A stretch of DNA of 64,000 bases from Candidatus Amesbacteria bacterium GW2011_GWB1_47_19 (GCA_001002325.1 LCNZ01000007.1:26763-90762), one strand, 5' to 3'; shown: positions 22,941 through 58,399, counted from the first letter of the stretch. Translations and numbers: made by a program. The notes: generated by a model from the sequence alone, not told the origin.

Positions 22941-25148
22941 TTACCTTTTCCTGGGTTTTTTTCGAGCGGGCGGCTCTTTGGGGGTCTGCGGGGGAGGTGA
23001 CGGGGGGGCGGGGGTGCTGATTTGAACAGAGACGCCGGTGAGAATCCGGTGATCGGGGGGAACGGGGGTGGGTGTTTTGATACCGGAAATGGAGATGTCG
23101 GTGCAGGTTTGTTTGGGTTCGGTCCCCGAGAGGAAATATTCCCATCTGCCGCCGCAGGCTGAGCAAGCCCGCTGGCCGGTAACGGGACAAATCTGAAGCT
23201 TTACCAGATTATCCGGGGGAGAGAAACCGGCAGAAGGGTGATCGGCCAGAATCAGGTCCATTATGCTGCGCCAGATGGGTGAGGCTCCGGTGACTCCAGA
23301 AGCGACATAGCTCATGGGAGTGTTGTCGTTGTTGCCGACCCAGACTGCAACCAGGCGATCGGGAGAAAAACCTATGGTCCAGTTGTCGCGAAGATTGTTG
23401 GTAGTGCCGGTTTTGACTGCAACCTGCTGGCCGGGAATATTCAGTTGGGACCGGGAGCCGAAAGTGGGGGTCCGGGCGGCGTTGTCTGAAAGAATGTCGG
23501 AAATAAGAAAGGCAATGCGGGGATCGAGAACGGGTTCGGGCTCGTAGTCGAATTTTTCCAGCAGACGGCCGCGGGAATCACGGACGGAAAGGATGGGATG
23601 AAGGCTGACTTTCCGGCCGTTATTGGCCAAAACTCCGTAAACAACAGCGAGATCCTGCATGGTAACGTCACCACCTCCCAGCGTCAGCGACAGCCCGTAA
23701 CGGGAAGGGTCGTTCCAGGTGGTAATACCCATTTTTTGGCCCAGGCTGACCATCTCGCTAACCCCGTTGGCGGCCAGAAGTTTAACGGCCGGAACATTGT
23801 ACGAGGAAGCCAGAGCAGTGCGCAGGGAAATCCGGCCATGGAAGCGGCGGTCGTAATTGACGGGTGAATAGGGCTCCTGACCCGGAATCCGGTAAGTTAT
23901 GGGAGAATCGTCAATAGGGCTGGCAGGAGTGAAATTCCGGGAAAAAGCGAGAGCATAATTGACTGGTTTGATAGCCGATCCGGGCTGGCGGACGGATTTG
24001 GTGACGTTTACCTGGCCGTCCCGGGCGAAATCGAAATAATCGTGCGAGCCTACCATGGCCAGAATCTCTCCGGTGTTGGGATTGGTGACCAGGGCGGCCC
24101 CGTTTTCGATATGCAGATAAGTGATTCTGGCTACCTCCTGTGCGACGATATTTTGAGCCTGTTCCTGAAGAGATAAATCCAATGAGGTGATGACGTCTAA
24201 TCCACCCTGTTCCACAAGGGCAGAACCGTATTTTTGGGCTAAGAGGTCTTTGATGTACATGACAAAATGGGGGGCTTTTATGTCCGAGCGGGGGGGCATT
24301 AGGGTGAGCTGAGCTGAAGCCGAAGCCTCGGCCTGTTCCCAGGAGATGAAACCGGCGGAAACCATGTGCCGGAGGACTTCCTGCTGGCGGGTCAGAGCCA
24401 GCTCGGGGTGGGCGCCGAACGGAGAATAAGAGGTGGGGGATGCCGGCAGCCCGGCTAAAAACGCCGCTTCGGGGAGCCCGAGTGCGGAAGAAGGCTTACC
24501 GAAATATGTTTGGGCGGCCTCTTCGATGCCGTAAGTGGCACCGCCGAAACCGACCCGGTTCAGATACATTTCCAATATCTGATCCTTGGAGTAAAGATGC
24601 TCGACGGCGATTGACAGAGTCAGCTCGCGAAGTTTGCGGCGGAGAGTGCGTTCCGGAGAGAGCAGGGCGGTTTTGACAAGCTGCTGGGTGATGGTGGAAC
24701 CACCCTGGATGGACAGAGAACAAGACAAGCGGCTAAGAGCACATTTCAGGTTGTTTAAAGTGAGATTTTTTACCACGGAGCGGAAAATAGCCTGGAGTGA
24801 GAAGCCGGAATGATAATAAAAATCCTTGTCTTCGATGGCTAGTATGGCTTGTTTGATATGTGGTGACAGATCGTCTAATTTAACCAGGGTCCGGTTCTGA
24901 CCGGAATAGATTTTGTATAATTCCACGCCGTTTCTGTCCCGGATGTGGGTGGTCAGGGGTAGGGGGGCCCGGGAGAGGGATGAGGGGGAAGGCAGACCGC
25001 GAAGAATAAAAATGTAAAAAAGTGAAAAAAGACCGGCGGAAAAGAGTATAAGGAGGATGAGGAAGAGACGGAGGCGCCTGAAAGAAAGAAGTGAGAGCAG
25101 ACGAACGTAAGGGAAAAGAAACTTGAGAAATGATTTGAGAGATAACAT
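22941..25148 (-). CDS. Class A penicillin-binding protein (PBP1; transglycosylase/transpeptidase)
   Basis: GT51 motif 'QGGSTITQQLVK'; transpeptidase 'SAIKP' and 'KTGTT'; N-terminal TM helix. Confidence 0.9.
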   Translation of the reverse strand: MLSLKSFLKFLFPYVRLLSLLSFRRLRLFLILLILFSAGLFSLFYIFILRGLPSPSSLSRAPLPLTTHIRDRNGVELYKIYSGQNRTLVKLDDLSPHIKQAILAIEDKDFYYHSGFSLQAIFRSVVKNLTLNNLKCALSRLSCSLSIQGGSTITQQLVKTALLSPERTLRRKLRELTLSIAVEHLYSKDQILEMYLNRVGFGGATYGIEEAAQTYFGKPSSALGLPEAAFLAGLPASPTSYSPFGAHPELALTRQQEVLRHMVSAGFISWEQAEASASAQLTLMPPRSDIKAPHFVMYIKDLLAQKYGSALVEQGGLDVITSLDLSLQEQAQNIVAQEVARITYLHIENGAALVTNPNTGEILAMVGSHDYFDFARDGQVNVTKSVRQPGSAIKPVNYALAFSRNFTPASPIDDSPITYRIPGQEPYSPVNYDRRFHGRISLRTALASSYNVPAVKLLAANGVSEMVSLGQKMGITTWNDPSRYGLSLTLGGGDVTMQDLAVVYGVLANNGRKVSLHPILSVRDSRGRLLEKFDYEPEPVLDPRIAFLISDILSDNAARTPTFGSRSQLNIPGQQVAVKTGTTNNLRDNWTIGFSPDRLVAVWVGNNDNTPMSYVASGVTGASPIWRSIMDLILADHPSAGFSPPDNLVKLQICPVTGQRACSACGGRWEYFLSGTEPKQTCTDISISGIKTPTPVPPDHRILTGVSVQISTPAPPSPPPQTPKEPPARKKPRKR

Positions 25149-25247
25149 TTACATCATAGGCAGGGTAGGTTAATTTTAAAGGGCAGGGAAACCGGTTTGA
25201 TTATATGAAGTATTACCAATTGGGGGCAATACCAAAAATCCTGAGTT

Positions 25248-27557
25248 TTATTGTTTAATAGCTTTTCCGGAAGAGTCGAGGCGGATGACGTCCGGGCCGC
25301 CATAACCACCGGAGCAGTCCAGACAAAGGGCGGTACCCAGGGCGTCAAACAGGACGGCATGATTTTGGGGTTCAATGTTTTGGGGTTCTTCGGCGATCTG
25401 TCTGGCGGTAGCCGGGGCCTGGGTGGATTTATAAATTGAGATGTCCCGGCGGTTTTGGCCGGGGTCCGGAGGAGGGAAGGTACCTTTGAGGAAATACTCA
25501 TAGCGGGGAGAACAGTCAGCCGGTGGCGACTCGGGAGTCCGGTAACCGGAGAGACTGCAGACGGTGGTGCCGGTTACGTCTGCCGGCTGGGGGGGCCAGT
25601 GCTGGGAGTAGTCGGTTAAAGCCCGGGACATGATTTTGTTCCAGATGGGTGAGGCGCCGGTAACCCCAGAAGCGATGTAACTCATGGCGGTATTGTCGTT
25701 GTTACCGACCCAGACGGCAACTTCGATGTCAGGGGTGAAACCGACTGTCCAGTTGTCGCGTTTTTCGTTGGTAGTACCGGTTTTGACCGAAACTTCGGGA
25801 TGGTTTTTTATATTGAGGTATGAGGAAGAGCCGAAGGTAGCCGAACGGGCGCCGTTGTCGTAGAGAATGTGAGAAATGATGAAAGCGGCACCGGAGGAAA
25901 TTACCCGGGTGTTGGGGGGTGATATCTTGACATACGATTTGTGATTGTAGCGAAATGAATTCAAGAGGTTGGTTTTTACTGAGTCTTCGTCTGATAGTTC
26001 GGTTGACGGAACCTGCTCCAGAACCGTGCCGGCCCGGTCCATGACCTTCAGGATGGGGTTTAGGTCTACCCGGGTGCCGGCATTGGCCAGCACACCGTAG
26101 GCGACAGCCAGATCGAGCATGGTGACCTCTCCACCTCCCAGAGCCAGTGAAGGACCAAAAGCCTGGGGGTCTTTGTAGGAAGTAATGCCAAAGGCGGATG
26201 AAGTGGCGACAAAATCCGTGAGACCGGTTAATGTAAGGGCTTTGACGGCGGGAATATTGAAAGAGTTGGCCAGAGCAAAACGAACCTGGGTGGGACCATG
26301 GAATTGGCCGTCGTAGTTGTCGGGACAATAGGGCTTTTGGTTGGCCTGGGAGAAACAAGTGGGCTTGTCGGCCAAAAGTGATGCGGCGGTAAATATTTTG
26401 TGGTCCAATCCCAGGGCATAATGGATGGGTTTGATAGAGGAACCCGGCTGACGGCTGGCAAGAACGACGTTAACATTGCCGTCGATTTGGGTGTCAAAAT
26501 AATCTTTGGAGCCGACCATAGCCAGGATTTCGCCGGTCTTGGGGTGGGTAACCAGAGCCGCACCGTTTGAAACCTTTTCTTTTTTGAGTTTGGCGACTTC
26601 GGAGGCGACTGCGGATTGGGCGAAATCCTGAAGTTCCAGATCCAGGGTGGTGATAACCGTCAAACCATCCTGTTCCACCCGGTCCAGGCCGTATTTTTGA
26701 ATCAGCATATCTTTGACCCAGAGAGAAAAATGGGGGGCATTGAGTGATTCCTGGCGGGAGTAGAGGAGTTCCTGACCTAAGGCCCCGTCATATTCTTGCT
26801 GACTGATGAATTTGTTGTCCAGCATCTGTGACAACACGTGACGCTGGCGGTCTTTGGCACGTTGGGGGGCGGAACCGAAAGGGGAATAATATGAGGGAGC
26901 CTGAGGCAGGCCGGCCAACAGGGCAGATTCGGCCAGAGTCAGTTCGGAAGCGGATTTACCGAAATAAGTCCGGGCGGCACTTTCCAGGCCGTAGGCCGTG
27001 CCACCGTATGGTACCTGGTTGAGATAAAATTCCAGAATCTCATTTTTTGAATAGATAATTTCCACGGCTAAACTGAGCACAAATTCCCGGGCCTTGCGAC
27101 GCAAAGTCCGGTCATCCGAGAGAAGAGCTTTTTTGACCAATTGTTGGGTGATGGTGGAGCCGCCCTGGAGTTTTTGACGGAAGAAAGTGTTTTTTACTGC
27201 CCGTAAAATCCCGCGCAGGGAAAAACCGGAGTGTTTGTAAAAATCCTTGTCTTCAGCGGATAAATGGGCAGCGATGACATATTTGGGCAGAGAGTCCAGT
27301 TTGATGGGCGTGCGGCGCTGGTCTGCAAAAATTTCGTAGATAAGCTGTCCATGACGGTCCAGAAGTTTGGTGGAAGCAGGCGACGGGTGGGAGGATAGGC
27401 GGGTGGGGTTGGGTAACCCCCAGAAAATGTAGAGTGTAAGAGCAAAAAAGCTGGTGAGAAGGAATAAAACCGGAAGTTTCCAATTCCTGAGACGGGGGTG
27501 ATGGATGACTTTTTTTGATCGTGACGGGGACCGCCGGTGTTTACCCTTTTTCTTCAT
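25248..27557 (-). CDS. Class A penicillin-binding protein (second paralog)
   Basis: 'QGGSTITQQLVKK', 'SSIKP' and 'KTGTT'; N-terminal TM helix. Confidence 0.9.
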   Translation of the reverse strand: MKKKGKHRRSPSRSKKVIHHPRLRNWKLPVLFLLTSFFALTLYIFWGLPNPTRLSSHPSPASTKLLDRHGQLIYEIFADQRRTPIKLDSLPKYVIAAHLSAEDKDFYKHSGFSLRGILRAVKNTFFRQKLQGGSTITQQLVKKALLSDDRTLRRKAREFVLSLAVEIIYSKNEILEFYLNQVPYGGTAYGLESAARTYFGKSASELTLAESALLAGLPQAPSYYSPFGSAPQRAKDRQRHVLSQMLDNKFISQQEYDGALGQELLYSRQESLNAPHFSLWVKDMLIQKYGLDRVEQDGLTVITTLDLELQDFAQSAVASEVAKLKKEKVSNGAALVTHPKTGEILAMVGSKDYFDTQIDGNVNVVLASRQPGSSIKPIHYALGLDHKIFTAASLLADKPTCFSQANQKPYCPDNYDGQFHGPTQVRFALANSFNIPAVKALTLTGLTDFVATSSAFGITSYKDPQAFGPSLALGGGEVTMLDLAVAYGVLANAGTRVDLNPILKVMDRAGTVLEQVPSTELSDEDSVKTNLLNSFRYNHKSYVKISPPNTRVISSGAAFIISHILYDNGARSATFGSSSYLNIKNHPEVSVKTGTTNEKRDNWTVGFTPDIEVAVWVGNNDNTAMSYIASGVTGASPIWNKIMSRALTDYSQHWPPQPADVTGTTVCSLSGYRTPESPPADCSPRYEYFLKGTFPPPDPGQNRRDISIYKSTQAPATARQIAEEPQNIEPQNHAVLFDALGTALCLDCSGGYGGPDVIRLDSSGKAIKQ

Positions 27558-34550: not shown

Positions 34551-36899
34551 ATGTTACCGGTGAATCTGACGGGGTTGTTGGTCCAGTTGGGAATTTTGGC
34601 GGCGGTGCTGGGAGCACTTGTTGTGCTGGGGATTTTCGGCGGATATGTGGGGATTGCTTTGTATCGGCACAAAGACCGGGAGGAAAAAAGCCTGCAAATG
34701 GTGGTGCTGCAAGTAGCTGTTCCCCGGGACAATGAAATCAAGATTGATGCCATGGAGCAGATATTTTCGAGCTTGTATTCGATCAAGAAAGGAAAGATGG
34801 GATGGTTCGGACTGCTGACATTTTTGCAGGTTCAGCCGCATATTAGCTTTGAGATAGTAGCGCGCAGGGAAGACATAAAATTTTATATCTCGGTGCCGGA
34901 TAAAATGCGGGATCTGGTGGAAAAACAAATCCACGGCGGTTATCCGGGGGCGGAGATAAAAATAGTGGAAGAGCCGACCATTTTTACCGATGAAGGACGG
35001 GTGGAATATGCCTGGATGGTGCTGCGTAATTCGGCGCATTATCCGATGAAAATATTTAAAGACCTGGCGACAGATCCGATGGCCTCCTTAACTTCGGCGA
35101 TGGCGAAAATGGGGGAAGGGGAGGGAGCGCATATCCAGATTCTGATATTTCCGGCCGAAAACAAATGGAAAGGCAAAGGCCGAGCATGGATCGGCAAGAC
35201 CAAGAAGAACGAGGCCAATCCGGAGAAAGCGTCGTACAAGGTTGATCCCAAAGTAATGGAGGCAGTGGACAATAAGATCAGCAAGGCCGGATTTATGACC
35301 ACCATCCGACTGGTAGTGACATCTGCGGATGCGGGGTCGGCTAAGGCACACATGGCAAATCTGAGAGCGGCTTTTGAACAATTTTCCGGAGACCTGAACG
35401 GATTTAAAAGTAAAAAAATAAGAATGAAAGGTAATTTTATGACGGACTTTATTTACCGTTATCAACCAATGGTGTGGTGGGGCAACTGGACGGTTTTAAA
35501 CAGTGAAGAACTGGCGACGATATATCATTTTCCCAACAAAACAATTGAAACCCCGCATATCCATTGGTTGAATGCCAAACGGGCACCGGCACCGCAGCAG
35601 ATTGCGTCTGAAGGCCTGTATATCGGTAAAAGCGTATTTCGGGGAATTACCCGGCCGGTATTTATTACCGATGAAGACCGGGAAAGGCATATGTATATAG
35701 TAGGCCGAACAGGGACGGGAAAAACGGAGTTTTTGAAGACCATGATTTTGCAGGATATCCAGGCGGGAAGGGGTGTGGCAGTTATTGATCCGCATGATCT
35801 GGCTGAGGATCTTTTAGGGTATATTCCACCGGAAAGGGCGGAGGACGTGATCTTTTTTGAACCATCGGATGAACAGTGGCCGATGGGGTTGAACCTGCTG
35901 GAGACACGCAACGAACAGGAAAGGCATATGGCAACCAACGCGGTAATAGGGATGATGTACAAACTGTATGATCCGCATAAAACCGGAATCATTGGACCGA
36001 GATTTGAACACGCTATCAGGAACGCAATGCTGACAGTGATGGATGCTATTCCCGGCGGGACATTTATCGAAGTGGTGCAGACACTGCAGCGGCCGGAATT
36101 CGTACAGGAAATGCTGCCGAGGGTGAAGGACCCGTTGGTGAGGAGGTATTGGACCGACCAGATAGCCCAAACGTCGGAATTTCATAAATCCGAAGTGCTG
36201 GATTATATCGTGTCCAAATTCGGCCGGTTCGTAACCAATAAAACTATCAGAAATATAATCGGACAGTCGGTGTCGGCGTTTGATTTCCGGAAAGTGATGG
36301 ATGAAGGGAGGATTCTGATCGTCAACCTGTCCAAAGGAAAACTGGGGGAGGAGAACAGCAACTTTCTGGGACTGGTGCTGGTGCCCCGGCTGCTGGCGGC
36401 AGCGATGAGCCGGGCGGATATGCCGGAGGCTTCCAGGCGGCCGTTTTATCTGTATGTGGATGAGTTCCAGAACTTTGCCACGCCGGATTTTGCCACCATT
36501 TTGTCCGAGGCCAGGAAATATAAACTGAATCTGACGGTGGCCAACCAATTTACTTCACAAATGGAGGATGAGGTAAAAAATGCGGTATTCGGCAACGTGG
36601 GAACTTTGATTTCGTTCCGGGTGGGGGTGGGAGACGCCAATTACCTGCAGCATGAATACAGCCCGACGTTTAACGAGGCGGATCTGTTAAATATCGAGAG
36701 ATACAATGTATTTATTAAAACGGTGGTGCATAACGAACCGGTACCGCCGTTTACTATGGATGTGACCAAGGATATTGATAAGGAAAGGAAGATGCGCAAT
36801 TCTCAACTGGCGGAGGCGATTAAAGAGTTGTCCCGGCTGAAATACGGGCGGGATGTGAGAATTGTAGAGGCGGAGATAGGAACCAGGTCGAAATTGTAA
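34551..36899 (+). CDS. VirD4/TraG/TraD-like type IV coupling ATPase (T4SS DNA-binding domain protein)
   Basis: N-terminal TM helix; Walker A 'GRTGTGKTEF'; 'LYVDEFQNFATPDFATILSEARKYKLNLTVANQ' matches the TraG/TraD C-terminal region. Confidence 0.6.
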   Translation: MLPVNLTGLLVQLGILAAVLGALVVLGIFGGYVGIALYRHKDREEKSLQMVVLQVAVPRDNEIKIDAMEQIFSSLYSIKKGKMGWFGLLTFLQVQPHISFEIVARREDIKFYISVPDKMRDLVEKQIHGGYPGAEIKIVEEPTIFTDEGRVEYAWMVLRNSAHYPMKIFKDLATDPMASLTSAMAKMGEGEGAHIQILIFPAENKWKGKGRAWIGKTKKNEANPEKASYKVDPKVMEAVDNKISKAGFMTTIRLVVTSADAGSAKAHMANLRAAFEQFSGDLNGFKSKKIRMKGNFMTDFIYRYQPMVWWGNWTVLNSEELATIYHFPNKTIETPHIHWLNAKRAPAPQQIASEGLYIGKSVFRGITRPVFITDEDRERHMYIVGRTGTGKTEFLKTMILQDIQAGRGVAVIDPHDLAEDLLGYIPPERAEDVIFFEPSDEQWPMGLNLLETRNEQERHMATNAVIGMMYKLYDPHKTGIIGPRFEHAIRNAMLTVMDAIPGGTFIEVVQTLQRPEFVQEMLPRVKDPLVRRYWTDQIAQTSEFHKSEVLDYIVSKFGRFVTNKTIRNIIGQSVSAFDFRKVMDEGRILIVNLSKGKLGEENSNFLGLVLVPRLLAAAMSRADMPEASRRPFYLYVDEFQNFATPDFATILSEARKYKLNLTVANQFTSQMEDEVKNAVFGNVGTLISFRVGVGDANYLQHEYSPTFNEADLLNIERYNVFIKTVVHNEPVPPFTMDVTKDIDKERKMRNSQLAEAIKELSRLKYGRDVRIVEAEIGTRSKL

Positions 36900-36944: not shown

Positions 36945-37016
36945 GGATCCGTAGCTCAACGGTAGAGCGGCTGTCTTATACACAGTATGTTGGAGGTTCG
37001 AATCCTCCCGGATCCA
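36945..37016 (+). tRNA. tRNA with anticodon TAT (reads AUA; tRNA-Ile(UAU)-like)
   Basis: Cloverleaf folded by hand: acceptor GGATCCG/CGGATCC, D-arm GCTC-AACGGTA-GAGC, anticodon stem GCTGT/ACAGT with loop CTTATAC, T-arm GGAGG-TTCGAAT-CCTCC. CCA is not encoded. Confidence 0.7.
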
Positions 37017-37144
37017 CAGATGCCGGGAGGCAACATTTGTTGTGCCCGGACCGCTTCAGGATGTTGTAGGTCAATCTTGGCCACAGAAGTTTACATCGGT
37101 TGTAAAATGGGCGGATGGCAGGCGGCAAGTTAGAACGATTAATA

Positions 37145-44182: not shown

Positions 44183-47100
44183 ATGGCTACACTTCGCCAA
44201 GGTCCTACGGGTGGTACTAAGAAAAAGCTACCAGTGAGAGGTTTTATGCTGCAGCTGAACCTGGATTTCCAGAAACTGTTGTGGTTGCTGGTGGTGATAT
44301 TGATGGGATTGTCACTTTTGGAGCTGTGGAATAGCGGTAAGCAGACCAGCCAGGAAGTTCAACTGTCGCAAGCGCTGTCTGATATCAAAGACGGCAAGGT
44401 GGAGAAAGTGGAGATTTTCTCGGAACGGCTGTCGCTGAAATATAAAGACAGCAAAGACCAGTTTTTTTCCCGTAAGGAACCGGGGGAAAGTTTTACTGAG
44501 ATTCTGGAGAGGGCAAAGATCCCCGCAGAAGCTGTGCAGTATGAGATAAAAGATGAAACTTTCGGCCAGTTGATAGCGGCGGTATTGCCCAGCGTAATCG
44601 GGACGGGGGTGGTGCTGTTGGTTCTGTTGTATATGTTCCGGCAAGCCAGGGGTGCCCAGGATTCGGTATTTTCTTTCGGCCAGAGCCGGGCAAAATTGTT
44701 TGACAAGGGCAAACAAAGCGTGAAATTTTCGGACGTAGCCGGGGTGGACGAAGCCAAGAAAGAACTGGAAGAAGTGGTGGACTTTTTGAAAAGTCCGGGT
44801 AAATACCGGGCAGTAGGGGCCAGGACTCCCAAAGGGGCGCTTTTGGTGGGACCGTCGGGGGTGGGAAAGTGCGTGACCGGTGATACCATAATATGGACCA
44901 ATAAGGGATTGATGGAGATAAAAGAGGTCCCGCGTTACTATTATGTTGATACAAAATCGCATCGGGTTTACGGGGCAGGACTGGCTGGTTTTGATACGGA
45001 CAAGGTGATATCAAAGGATGAATTCGCTTCCCATTGGTACAATTTGGGTGAACAAGCAACCGTTAAAGTACAGTTGGCGCAGGGGTTTGATATAGAAGGG
45101 ACTCCCGAGCATCCGGTAGTAGTAATGGCCGGAGATGGCAAGTTACGATTTAGAAAATTACAGGATGTGAAACTGGGGGATTATGCTGCCCTGCAGTTTG
45201 GCAGAGGTATGTTTGGGAACTTACAAATGGTGGATGCAGACACGGCTTATCTGATGGGACTATTAACGGGAGATGGAAATATGAGTCATGCTAGTAGGGT
45301 GGGGTTGACTAATATTGATCCGGAAATAATCTCGTTTTTTGAAAATTATATAAAGAAGAGATATCCGGAGAATGCGATTACAGTGAGACAGCAGTCCTAT
45401 CTGGTGTCCAGTTGGCAATTTAAACGATCTCTTTATGAGATGGGGATGTCTTATCTGTTATCTTTTGATAAGAGTGTGCCGGTGACGATATTACAGGCAT
45501 CGAGAGGAATTCAGATAATGTTTTTGAGGGGTCTGTTTGATACTGACGCCAGTGTGGAGAAGAGCAGGGCGACGATAGAGTATACAACCGTTAGCGAAAA
45601 AATGGCTAAACAGATACAAATGATGCTATTGAATATGGGGGTGGTAGCCTATTTGAATGTCAAAGGAAAAACTGAAAATGGTTATTATCGGCCTGTTTAT
45701 CGTTTGAACATAACCGGGTCCCCGTTCGTGGAATTCAGCAGGCAAATTGGGTTCGGTTTGGTTAGAAAACAACGACTTTTGGAAAGGCATGTGGAGAAAA
45801 TGGGACGAGTGAATACTAATATTGATGTAATTCCCGGAGTCGGAGGGATGATAGAAGAAGCGTGGAGGTTGATTTCCGCTCGTAAGATGAGCAATGAAAA
45901 ACTATCAAAGACGGTTGATAAAGTGAGGAATAGGAATAGGGTTTCCAGACAAACACTAGAGGATTTTGTGGAGTATTCCAGCCAGACGGGAATGGAGATG
46001 CCTGACCTGGAGTATTTGGGAAATTTGTTGGAAGCTAAGCTGTTTTTTTCAAAAGTAGTAGAAAAAACGGAAAATAAGGGTGTGGTTTATGATTTTACCG
46101 TGCCTCAAACACATAGTTTTTTGGGAAACGGATTTGTAAATCATAATACACTGTTGGCCAGGGCGGTGGCGGGAGAAGCGGGAGTACCGTTTTTTTCAAT
46201 GGCAGGATCGGAGTTTATGGAAATGCTGGTGGGGGTGGGAAGTGCCCGGGTGAGGGATTTGTTTAACACAGCTAAAAAAGCAGCCCCGTCAATTATTTTT
46301 ATTGATGAAATTGACGCTATCGGAAGGCAGCGGGGACACGGGTTGATGGGTGGGCACGATGAAAGGGAACAAACATTGAATCAGATACTGGTGGAGATGG
46401 ACGGATTTACGCCTAATGATAATGTGGTGGTGCTGGCGGCAACAAACAGAGGGGATCTGCTGGATCCTGCACTTTTACGGCCCGGCAGGTTTGACCGGCG
46501 GGTGGTGGTGGATATGCCTGACATTGAAGGACGGAAAGCAATTCTGGCAATTTATGCCCGAAATAAACCAATAGCCGAAGGAGTGGATTGGAGTGCGGTG
46601 GCGAGAAGGACAGTCGGGTTTTCCGGAGCGGATCTGGAAAATATGCTGAATGAAGCGGCGATTGGTGTAGCCCGGGAAAACCACAAGACCATGACGATGC
46701 AGGATATCGAGGAAGCAGCTACGAAAGTAAAGCTGGGTCCGCAAAAGAAGCGGATGCAATCCGAGGAGGACCGGAAAATGACGGCTTACCATGAGGTGGG
46801 ACATGCGATTGTGACGTGGGCCCAACCGGGGATGGATCCGGTGCACAGGATATCGATTGTGTCGCGGGGAATGACATTGGGACATACGCTGGTGCCACCG
46901 TCGACGGACAGGGTACATGAGACTAAAAACCGGCTGTTGTCACAGGTGGCCATGATGCTGGGGGGAAGAGCTGCGGAAGAGATGGTTTTTTCCGAGGTCA
47001 CTACCGGTGCGGCTAATGATATTGATAAAGCCACCAGAGTAGCCCGGGATATGGTGATGGAGTACGGCATGAGCAGTCTGGGACCCGTCAATTACGGACC

Positions 47101-47329
47101 GCAGCAGGATATGGTGGAATGGGGACGGACTTATATTGAGCAGCCGCCTATTTCGCAGGAAATGCAGGCAAAGATTGATACGGAAGTAAAAAGAATCATG
47201 GACGAAGGATATCTGAAGGCGGTTGCCATATTAAAAAAATACCGGAAAAGGCTGGATGCCGTATCGCTGAGACTTCTGGAAATTGAAACTATGGACGGGG
47301 ATGAGTTTGAGAAGATCATGAAGGCGTAA
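44183..47329 (+). CDS. ftsH: ATP-dependent zinc metalloprotease FtsH, interrupted by an in-frame intein in the Walker A P-loop
   Basis: N-terminal TM helices, AAA motifs (GPSGVGK|...|[15 protein letters not shown], '[13 protein letters not shown]'), and the Zn-protease 'HEVGHAIV'. At 1048 aa it is too long because a 426-aa insert sits between GK and T of GxxGxGKT. Confidence 0.9.
44870..46147 (+). mobile_element. Intein (426 aa) with LAGLIDADG homing-endonuclease domain, inserted in the FtsH P-loop
   Basis: Begins with Cys1 (CVTGDTIIW) and contains a TxxH block B (GTPEHPV). The two LAGLIDADG motifs are '[12 protein letters not shown]' and '[12 protein letters not shown]'. The intein ends with ...VYDF...GFVNHN followed by the +1 Thr of the extein (TLLARAV). 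Confidence 0.85.
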
Positions 47330-56692: not shown

Positions 56693-58399
56693 ATGACATT
56701 TCCGGAGCTGGCAGAGTGTTTGGAGGAATTGGAGAAGACGGGATCAAGATTGGAAATGACCAGGTTGCTGGCGGAATTATACAAAAAGGTAACCCCCTAT
56801 GAAGGAAGGCTGGTGGCATACCTAAGCCAGGGAAGACTAGGACCGGCTTACAACAATCCGAATTTCGGAGTGGCGGACAAAATGATGGTACGGGTACTGG
56901 GACCTGAAGCGGAAAAACTGTTTAAGCAATTGGGGGATTTGGGCATGGTGGCGGAAAAACTCAAAGCTCAAAACCCCAAATCCAAATCAAATTCAAAAAT
57001 CAAAATTCAAAAAGTGTACGGGTTACTAAAGGAAATTGCCGGTGAGGGGGGAGCCGGGAGTCAGGAGAAAAAACTGGAATTGATAAAGATTTTACTGTCG
57101 GATTTAGGCCCGTTGGAAGCAAAATACGCGACGAAAATGATATTGGGGAAATTAAGGTCCGGTTTTTCGGATATGACGGTGTTAGACAGCCTGTCGTGGA
57201 TGGTAACCGGGGATAAATCATTAAGAAAGGAAATTGAAAGGGTTTACAATGTCAGAGCGGACTTGGGAGAGGTAGTGCGGTTGGTGAAAGAGGCGGGGAG
57301 CGGTGAGAAAATCAAGAAGCTAGAGGTTGAACCGGTGTGGGGAACACCCGTGCTTGTAGCCAGAGCGGAGCGGGCTAAAACCATAGCCGAGATTTGGAAG
57401 AGGAATGGGGAAAGTGTTGCCGAACACAAGCTGGACGGATTGAGAATTCAGGCGCATGTTTCCAAATCACAGGTGAAATTATTTTCCAGAGGCCTGGAGG
57501 ATGTGACGGCGATGTATCCGGATATTGCAGAAGGATTACTTAAACAAGTCCATACCACATGCATTTTGGACGGGGAGATGATAGCCCTGGACGGCAGAGG
57601 CAGATACCTGCCGTTTCAGGAGACTGCACAGCGGAAACGCAAGTACGGGATTACGGAAATGATACGGAACGTGCCTCTGAAATATTTTGTTTTTGACTTG
57701 TTGATGGCTAACGGTAAAAGTTTGTTGGAGGAGGCAAATAGTGAGAGGTGGAGCAGGCTTGAGAAAATCATAGGGGTCGGAGGTATTGTTAAATTAATTC
57801 CCCGCAGAGTTGTCAAGTCAGAAGCCGAAATCGGGAAATTTTTTGAGGATTCGCTAAGAGAGGGGACGGAGGGAATAATGGTGAAAAGAGCGGAAGGGAG
57901 ATATCAATCCGGATCCAGGGACTTTAATTGGATAAAGTATAAAAAAAGTTATGATGCGAGCGGGATGGCGGATACCATTGATGCGGTAGTGCTGGGTTAT
58001 GATGCTGGGGAGGGTAAACGTTCCGGTTTTGGAATCGGGGGATTTTTGATAGGGGTAAAAGGGGACGGGTCCGATAAATATTTGACAATCGCAAAAATTG
58101 GAACCGGCCTGAAGGATGACGAGTGGAGAGAGCTGAAGAGACGGTGTGAAGAAATTAAACTTTTGGAAAAACCCGACAATTACGAGGTGGGGAAGCAGAT
58201 GGGATGTGATGTCTGGGTCAGGCCGAAAATCGTGGTGGAAATAAAAGCGGATGAAATAACCAAGTCTCCGATGCACACATCCAAACTGGCCCTGAGATTT
58301 CCCAGACTGGTAAGTTTCAGAGATATGAAAATCGAGGATGCGACCAGCATGAAAGAAATTGAGCGGCTATATAAATTACAAAAAGAAGGAGGTGATTGA
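56693..58399 (+). CDS. ATP-dependent DNA ligase (archaeal/eukaryotic-type) with in-frame repeat insertion
   Basis: 'EHKLDGLRIQAHV' KxDG adenylation motif and an OB domain; insertion 'KAQNPKSKSNSKIKIQK'. Confidence 0.8.
   Translation: MTFPELAECLEELEKTGSRLEMTRLLAELYKKVTPYEGRLVAYLSQGRLGPAYNNPNFGVADKMMVRVLGPEAEKLFKQLGDLGMVAEKLKAQNPKSKSNSKIKIQKVYGLLKEIAGEGGAGSQEKKLELIKILLSDLGPLEAKYATKMILGKLRSGFSDMTVLDSLSWMVTGDKSLRKEIERVYNVRADLGEVVRLVKEAGSGEKIKKLEVEPVWGTPVLVARAERAKTIAEIWKRNGESVAEHKLDGLRIQAHVSKSQVKLFSRGLEDVTAMYPDIAEGLLKQVHTTCILDGEMIALDGRGRYLPFQETAQRKRKYGITEMIRNVPLKYFVFDLLMANGKSLLEEANSERWSRLEKIIGVGGIVKLIPRRVVKSEAEIGKFFEDSLREGTEGIMVKRAEGRYQSGSRDFNWIKYKKSYDASGMADTIDAVVLGYDAGEGKRSGFGIGGFLIGVKGDGSDKYLTIAKIGTGLKDDEWRELKRRCEEIKLLEKPDNYEVGKQMGCDVWVRPKIVVEIKADEITKSPMHTSKLALRFPRLVSFRDMKIEDATSMKEIERLYKLQKEGGD
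56958..57013. repeat. AAATTCAAA-type repeat, in frame in the ligase gene
   Basis: aactcaaagctcaaaaccccaaatccaaatcaaattcaaaaatcaaaattcaaaaa. Confidence 0.7.

Follow-up and report, generated by a model that had tools for sequence, protein, structure and literature searches.

The locus studied here raises a simple question: how can a gene for the ATP-dependent membrane protease FtsH from a Candidatus Amesbacteria genome, a member of the Candidate Phyla Radiation (CPR), carry 426 additional amino acids in the middle of its ATP-binding loop? The gene lies in a stretch of 64,000 nucleotides (positions 1-64000), which is referred to as the window. The insert is very probably a canonical class 1 intein in which a double-motif LAGLIDADG homing endonuclease is nested, that is, a selfish mobile element residing in the Walker A P-loop of ftsH. 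Its endonuclease is best explained as functional, or functional until very recently, given the pattern of residue conservation and constraint described below.

The interrupted FtsH

The open reading frame at 44183..47329 (plus strand) encodes an FtsH precursor of 1048 amino acids and is open throughout. The whole protein scores above the equivalog cutoff of the NCBIfam family TIGR01241, FtsH_fam (717 bits versus 600), and the Pfam matches found in the exteins are FtsH_ext, AAA (3e-37), AAA_lid_3 (4e-13), and Peptidase_M41 (1e-62). The protein thus holds everything that defines an FtsH: a membrane region at the N terminus, an AAA module that has both Walker motifs (A and B), and an M41 zinc protease domain with the HEVGH motif. 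The N-extein (aa 1-229, 44183..44869, plus strand) covers the transmembrane and FtsH_ext region together with the beginning of the AAA module and terminates in GPSGVGK. The C-extein (aa 656-1048 plus the stop codon, 46148..47329, plus strand) begins with Thr+1, which is the threonine of Walker A, and contains what is left of the AAA module, together with the AAA lid and the M41 domain with HEVGH.

Once the insert is removed, the two exteins form a full-length FtsH of 622 amino acids. This spliced sequence aligns with the FtsH of Thermotoga (7tdo) without any gap through Walker A (E = 8e-165), reading GPSGVGKTLLA where 7tdo reads GPPGTGKTLLA. The only cysteine of the whole precursor is the first residue of the insert, so that the spliced FtsH has none. 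The same 1048-aa sequence recurs without change on 22 contigs of independent assemblies from Rifle aquifer groundwater metagenomes, which means that the insert is not an assembly artefact. The same protein is already deposited at NCBI for Candidatus Amesbacteria (GW2011_GWB1_47), where it is annotated plainly as FtsH.

Anatomy of the intein

The insert corresponds to precursor residues 230-655 (44870..46147, 426 aa) and sits exactly between the lysine and the threonine of Walker A, where the sequence runs GPSGVGK/CVTGDTIIW...GNGFVNHN/Thr+1. At the DNA level, the reconstituted intein-free site consists of CTTTTGGTGGGACCGTCGGGGGTGGGAAAG directly followed by ACACTGTTGGCCAGGGCGGTGGCGGGAGAA. The Hint N half (intein aa 1-118, 44870..45223, plus strand) is matched over aa 1-85 by the NCBIfam model intein_Nterm (32 bits versus a cutoff of 24.5) and is predicted by AlphaFold2 to be all-beta, with a pLDDT of 94-98. 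It holds block A, with Cys1 (precursor Cys230), and block B, TPEH (T78-P-E-H81). The LAGLIDADG endonuclease domain follows (intein aa 119-300, 45224..45769, plus strand), with LAGLIDADG_3 matching aa 215-294 and with matches by sequence or by fold to PI-PkoII, PI-PfuI, and I-DmoI. Its first motif, block C, is LMGLLTGDG (intein 127-136, with D135) and its second, block E, is LRGLFDTDA (intein 219-227, with D226). A helical accessory domain, visible as helices in the AlphaFold2 model and covered by the whole-chain match to TliVMA (7qss), spans intein aa 301-398 (45770..46063, plus strand). The Hint C half (intein aa 399-426, 46064..46147, plus strand) closes the element with block F (D408 and H415) and block G (FVNHN, with H425 and N426, then Thr+1); intein_Cterm matches it over aa 406-426 with about 28 bits, versus a cutoff of 15.6.

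Pfam adds matches to LAGLIDADG_3 (E = 5e-20 to 5e-21) and Intein_splicing (E = 5e-13 to 8e-14), and the solved inteins recognized by sequence are PI-PkoII, Mxe GyrA, PI-PfuI, and Pho RadA. The intein signature is far beyond chance. The sequence and structural attributes of a class 1 intein come together here, namely a nucleophilic Cys1, a TxxH block, blocks F and G with His-Asn followed by Thr+1, a Hint fold, and a host protein that is restored by excision; likewise, the two helices carrying one catalytic acidic residue each (D135 and D226) are those of a two-motif monomeric LAGLIDADG enzyme. A homology search found no further homologous intein elsewhere in the 64-kb window.

These results bear out the initial annotation of the locus, which had described a 426-aa insert at 44870-46147 in a 1048-aa FtsH and read it as a class 1 intein with a LAGLIDADG endonuclease. 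Translation places both boundaries to the base; Cys1, TxxH, the two LAGLIDADG motifs, and the terminal HN followed by Thr can be read directly; and the domain models, junction residues, predicted fold, and intein-free orthologues all agree with the assignment. Two of the checks that it had proposed give the same answer: orthologues without the insert read GVGKTLLAR and, like the gap-free alignment with 7tdo, leave the P-loop flanks intact, and the search for intein blocks and domains returns the Pfam and NCBIfam models named above. Its remark that the Lys/Thr junction is a favored insertion point also holds, since PMC5050341 calls an insertion at this junction the "classic" P-loop intein insertion.

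Predicted fold

The AlphaFold2 model of the intein, computed from a family alignment of 29 sequences, has a mean pLDDT of 93.1 and a pTM of 0.93. It is divided into a Hint N half rich in beta structure (1-118), an endonuclease core of alpha/beta type (119-300), an accessory domain made of five helices (approximately 298-390, with helices at 298-311, 325-337, 343-352, 360-371, and 378-388), and the Hint C half. The accessory domain is predicted to help in DNA binding. When the model is compared with the PDB using Foldseek, the best match is the TliVMA intein 7qss (E = 8e-26, TM 0.73), followed by PI-PfuI, PhoVMA, PI-TkoII (named PI-PkoII in its PDB record), and PI-SceI, all of them inteins that contain a homing endonuclease. 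Only after these do the free-standing enzyme I-DmoI and the mini-inteins appear, each matching its respective sub-domain. The endonuclease fold matches I-DmoI and I-Tsp061I, and the Hint N and C halves match the mini-inteins Mxe GyrA, Ssp DnaB, Mtu RecA, and Pho RadA.

Proposed splicing and homing cycle

Splicing, endonuclease activity, and the DNA target can be proposed by analogy with the established biology of inteins and LAGLIDADG enzymes. Translation would produce a 117-kDa precursor with a broken ATP-binding loop, in which the Hint domain folds and Cys1 carries out an N-S acyl shift at the Lys229-Cys230 bond. Thr+1 would then attack the resulting thioester in a trans-esterification, and cyclization of Asn426 would free the 48-kDa intein. 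A final O-N shift would rebuild the peptide bond between GK and T, yielding an active FtsH of 68.8 kDa. The freed intein, in turn, would act as a site-specific endonuclease, cutting intein-free ftsH across the P-loop codons (...GGNAAR/ACN...), and repair from the intein-bearing copy would allow the element to spread. That the enzyme cleaves the intein-free allele is inferred from the conservation of its residues and from the dN/dS of 0.066 of its domain, both of which are detailed below.

Distribution and relatives of the FtsH intein

One genome of each GTDB species was scanned with motifs taken from the Hint N half, which revealed 97 loci encoding a relative of this intein. Eighty were kept, 79 of them in FtsH at the GK/T site and one in MutS. 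At least 79 species representatives, mainly from the CPR, therefore carry an intein at the P-loop site of FtsH, in a distribution that is broad and patchy. The CPR hosts include Ames-, Davies-, Levy-, Gottesman-, Woese-, Pace-, Shapiro-, Nomura-, Campbell-, Kuenen-, Nealson-, Kaiser-, and Saccharibacteria, and the hosts outside the CPR belong to Acidobacteriota (Pyrinomonadaceae and Blastocatellia), Chlorobiota, Chloroflexia, and Omnitrophota. The 77 FtsH-site alleles that could be cleanly extracted are all 425-438 aa long, and there is no mini-intein among these full-length alleles. C1, T78, H81, D226, D408, H415, H425, and N426 are invariant in all 77, and D135 is present in 76, with Glu in the remaining one. 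At residue 227, the last of motif 2, 59 alleles have Gly and 18 have Ala, the lineage of the window being among the latter.

Two further members of the group depart from this pattern. The FtsH intein of a Vogelbacteria metagenome-assembled genome (L050) contains one in-frame stop, and that of a Chloroflexia one (L057) has lost the ...HN ending, maybe through a frameshift. Either allele may be in decay or may reflect an error of sequencing.

Outside FtsH, the closest sequence relatives are the inteins of PhoH, UvrD-like, MutS, and CobA-like proteins, which share 29-36% identity across all 426 aa (E between 1e-40 and 1e-61), end in ...NG[FL][IV][NS]HN, and are all inserted between GK and Thr or Ser. 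This insertion point is shared by every family member recovered by homology search, Dcd inteins included. In a rough, distance-based, and unbootstrapped neighbor-joining tree, the FtsH inteins form one clade with the UvrD-like, PhoH, MutS, and CobA-like inteins as its nearest neighbors, and the alleles of Acidobacteriota and Chlorobiota are nested among those of Parcubacteria. This nesting suggests transfer between phyla.

Amesbacteria orthologues with and without the intein

The 120 best relatives of the extein are mostly FtsH proteins of 600-650 aa that lack the intein; about 105 have none of any kind. The nearest intein-free ones are approximately 80% identical to the extein of the window, which means that the same aquifer community contains empty targets. 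The same intein is found in P0076, with 87% identity in the extein and 84% in the intein, and in P0184 and P0185, with 74-75% in the extein and 71% in the intein. At the level of orthologous loci, it is present in L006, L007, and L008; in L009, which comes from the same project, and in L010, the GVGK-TLLAR stretch is unbroken. These loci share the gene order TrpRS, tRNA_bind, FtsH, 5'-3' exonuclease, glycosyltransferase, and Fpg, with the exception of the intein-free L010, which has other genes upstream of ftsH. The parallel identities of intein and extein within Amesbacteria (84% versus 87%, and 71% versus 74%) fit a history of mostly vertical inheritance and loss as well as they fit recent homing. 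The intein of the window also differs from its host in composition, with a GC content of 0.42 and a GC3 of 0.44, compared with 0.51 and 0.57 in the extein (nine points lower in GC), and the same offset is seen in four out of four intein-bearing alleles.

A search of JGI metagenomes with the exact 30-mer spanning the reconstituted junction gave no matches. The 23-mer GGACCGTCGGGGGTGGGAAAGAC (window 44849-44871, made of 21 nt upstream of the insertion point and the first 2 nt of the Thr codon) has exact copies in other metagenomes, in three unrelated P-loop genes (L091-L093) whose open reading frames measure 858 aa, 497 aa, and 208 aa, the last one being cut by the end of its contig. These matches carry no information on intein-free alleles of this species, and no such allele was found in the JGI metagenomes with either the junction 30-mer or this 5' half-site 23-mer. 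The identity of the 23-mer in L091-L093 does show that P-loop DNA could offer ectopic targets to an endonuclease of this type.

Two apparent variants among the relatives were considered and rejected. A Daviesbacteria locus (L005), where two genes encode 352 aa and 695 aa, resembled a split or frameshifted intein; the break is a run of N in the scaffold and has no biological meaning. Some close FtsH matches of around 890 aa were likewise candidate carriers of a mini-intein; they contain no Hint sequence and have tandem AAA domains instead. These CPR proteins (P0119, P0158, P0166, P0177, and P0178) represent an FtsH form with two tandem AAA modules ahead of M41.

Other Amesbacteria FtsH proteins (P0112, P0168, and P0172) have a second, unrelated intein site in the sensor-1 region of the AAA module (LAA/SVT...LLHN/TNR). 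The intein found there is 435-448 aa long, starts with Ser, and carries LAGLIDADG motifs. The window gene is empty at this site (around aa 753, VVVLAA/TNRGDLL, nt approximately 46439-46444).

Selection on the intein and alternative explanations

The ratio dN/dS, calculated by the Nei-Gojobori method against the closest allele and with synonymous sites near saturation in most pairs, is 0.075 for the intein, 0.066 for its endonuclease domain, 0.12 for the accessory domain, and 0.04-0.05 for the exteins (0.04 for the C-extein against L006). Values this low throughout indicate purifying selection on the host gene and on every part of the intein. In the comparison between the window and L006, pS is 0.49-0.55 in the endonuclease and accessory domains, below the 0.69-0.70 of the extein. 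This hint of a younger intein leads to no conclusion, since the trend is reversed in the L007/L008 pair and the sites are near saturation.

These values bear most directly on the alternative that the intein is competent for splicing and its endonuclease is no longer active. The element would then be a fixed, vertically inherited passenger that persists only because any inexact loss would ruin the P-loop of an essential gene. The parallel divergence of intein and extein among Amesbacteria speaks for such a passenger, and so do the Ala in place of Gly at the end of motif 2 and the failure of the k-mer searches in JGI metagenomes to find an intein-free allele of the same species; moreover, the homing-cycle model predicts the decay of the endonuclease after fixation (PMC8966425). 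However, selection constrains the endonuclease domain as strongly as the host protein, the two catalytic Asp residues persist throughout the 77 alleles except for one D135E, mini-inteins are missing among them, and relatives with 80% extein identity lack the intein. An inactive endonuclease is thus unlikely, and the intein with an active or very recently active enzyme remains the preferred reading.

A more ambitious proposal takes in the whole family: a single lineage, with an endonuclease directed at P-loop DNA, would have jumped repeatedly among non-orthologous NTPase genes at GK/T or GK/S sites that correspond in structure (FtsH, UvrD, PhoH, MutS, and CobA-like) and, in addition, would have been kept in the FtsH of CPR bacteria as a useful splicing gate on the protease. 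Taken together, this double claim is doubtful and has a small chance of being correct.

The gate has also been considered by itself, as an intein co-opted into a post-translational switch whose splicing depends on temperature, redox state, metal, or substrate and controls FtsH in a reduced CPR genome. The position of the intein within the catalytic P-loop is suggestive in this respect, given that the precursor cannot bind ATP, as are the retention of the element under strong constraint across many CPR lineages and the general argument, made in PMC4760082, that P-loop inteins may be selectively retained. In contrast, the sole cysteine of the precursor is Cys1, which makes an intramolecular disulfide trap impossible, and approximately 105 of the 120 best extein matches manage without any intein. 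A regulatory role of this kind is consequently regarded as improbable.

Finally, a non-splicing insert, either an unexcised domain or a pseudogenising insertion that leaves this copy of ftsH non-functional, is extremely improbable, for nothing specific favors it apart from the room for a second ftsH elsewhere in a genome of which 64 kb are in view, and it is contradicted by the intact splice-site residues, by the 1048 open codons, and by an extein dN/dS that would be unexpected for a dead gene.

Other features of the window

Several other characteristics of the window deserve a mention. Its GC skew is both extreme and uniform, from +0.23 to +0.38 in each 4-kb bin, and persists over the minus-strand genes for penicillin-binding proteins at 22941-27557; a strand asymmetry of this size is far above that of typical bacteria. 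These genes are two adjoining class A paralogues (22941-25148 and 25248-27557, both on the minus strand), each encoding a transglycosylase and a transpeptidase domain. A tRNA-Ile with the anticodon TAT (UAU) is located at 36945-37017 (plus strand), the UAU anticodon being an uncommon way of reading AUA in bacteria. The window also encodes a 782-aa open reading frame without Pfam match at E <= 1e-5 (34551-36899, plus strand) and an ATP-dependent DNA ligase (56693-58399, plus strand) that contains DNA_ligase_A_N, _M, and _C domains and is of the archaeal/eukaryal type, here in a CPR bacterium.

Significance and comparison with known inteins

FtsH is a new host for a well-known kind of intein, one that was already present in sequence databases and has gone unremarked in the searchable literature. 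Full-text searches combining FtsH and intein listed no paper whose title or abstract concerns an intein in this protein, searches on inteins and CPR names gave nothing relevant, and FtsH is absent from the main text of the intein survey PMC4760082. The suggestion in the initial annotation that FtsH is not among the commonly cited hosts is correct for this literature; the rarity it implied was overstated, with at least 79 species carrying the intein and the protein itself already at NCBI.

The FtsH intein is in itself textbook intein biology, and its interest lies in where it is found. With FtsH, an ATP-dependent membrane protease rather than an enzyme of DNA or nucleotide metabolism joins the hosts of inteins, and the allele is widespread in the CPR/Patescibacteria, whose inteins barely figure in the searchable literature. 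The full-length family of 77 alleles constitutes natural material for the study of how P-loop inteins move between unrelated NTPase genes and of splicing as a gate on an essential protease. It is also a source for engineering, as it offers mesophilic, single-cysteine inteins with Cys1 and Thr+1, together with a new LAGLIDADG specificity.

Among the known systems, the best match in fold to the FtsH intein is TliVMA from Thermococcus litoralis (7qss), a P-loop intein of the VMA-b group with a HINT domain, a LAGLIDADG endonuclease, and an accessory domain, whose endonuclease is experimentally active (PMC8966425). Both inteins are inserted in a P-loop, and they have the same three-domain architecture and a similar length (429 versus 426 aa). 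They differ in that TliVMA is hosted by the A subunit of an archaeal V-ATPase, not by a bacterial FtsH, and in sequence, where identity is only approximately 20%. Accessory domains are reported to vary in structure within the VMA-b group (PMC8966425).

The inteins of PhoH, UvrD-like, MutS, and CobA-like proteins occupy the same site, after GK and before Thr or Ser, but they belong to other host genes and fall outside the clade of FtsH inteins. The clustering of inteins in P-loops is the theme of PMC4760082, which lists those of PhoH, UvrD, and LonB. PI-PfuI (Pfu RIR1-1, 1dq3) and PI-TkoII (2cw7) are matched in sequence and fold, and are also class 1 inteins with a double LAGLIDADG motif and an extra DNA-binding domain; in contrast to the FtsH intein, they are archaeal, reside in a ribonucleotide reductase (RNR) and a DNA polymerase, and are inserted outside the P-loop. 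The inteins of archaeal LonB and chloroplast ClpP, listed in PMC4760082, share with the FtsH intein a host that is an ATP-dependent protease, but concern other proteins and other sites, and profile and homology searches gave no sequence relationship between them and the FtsH intein.
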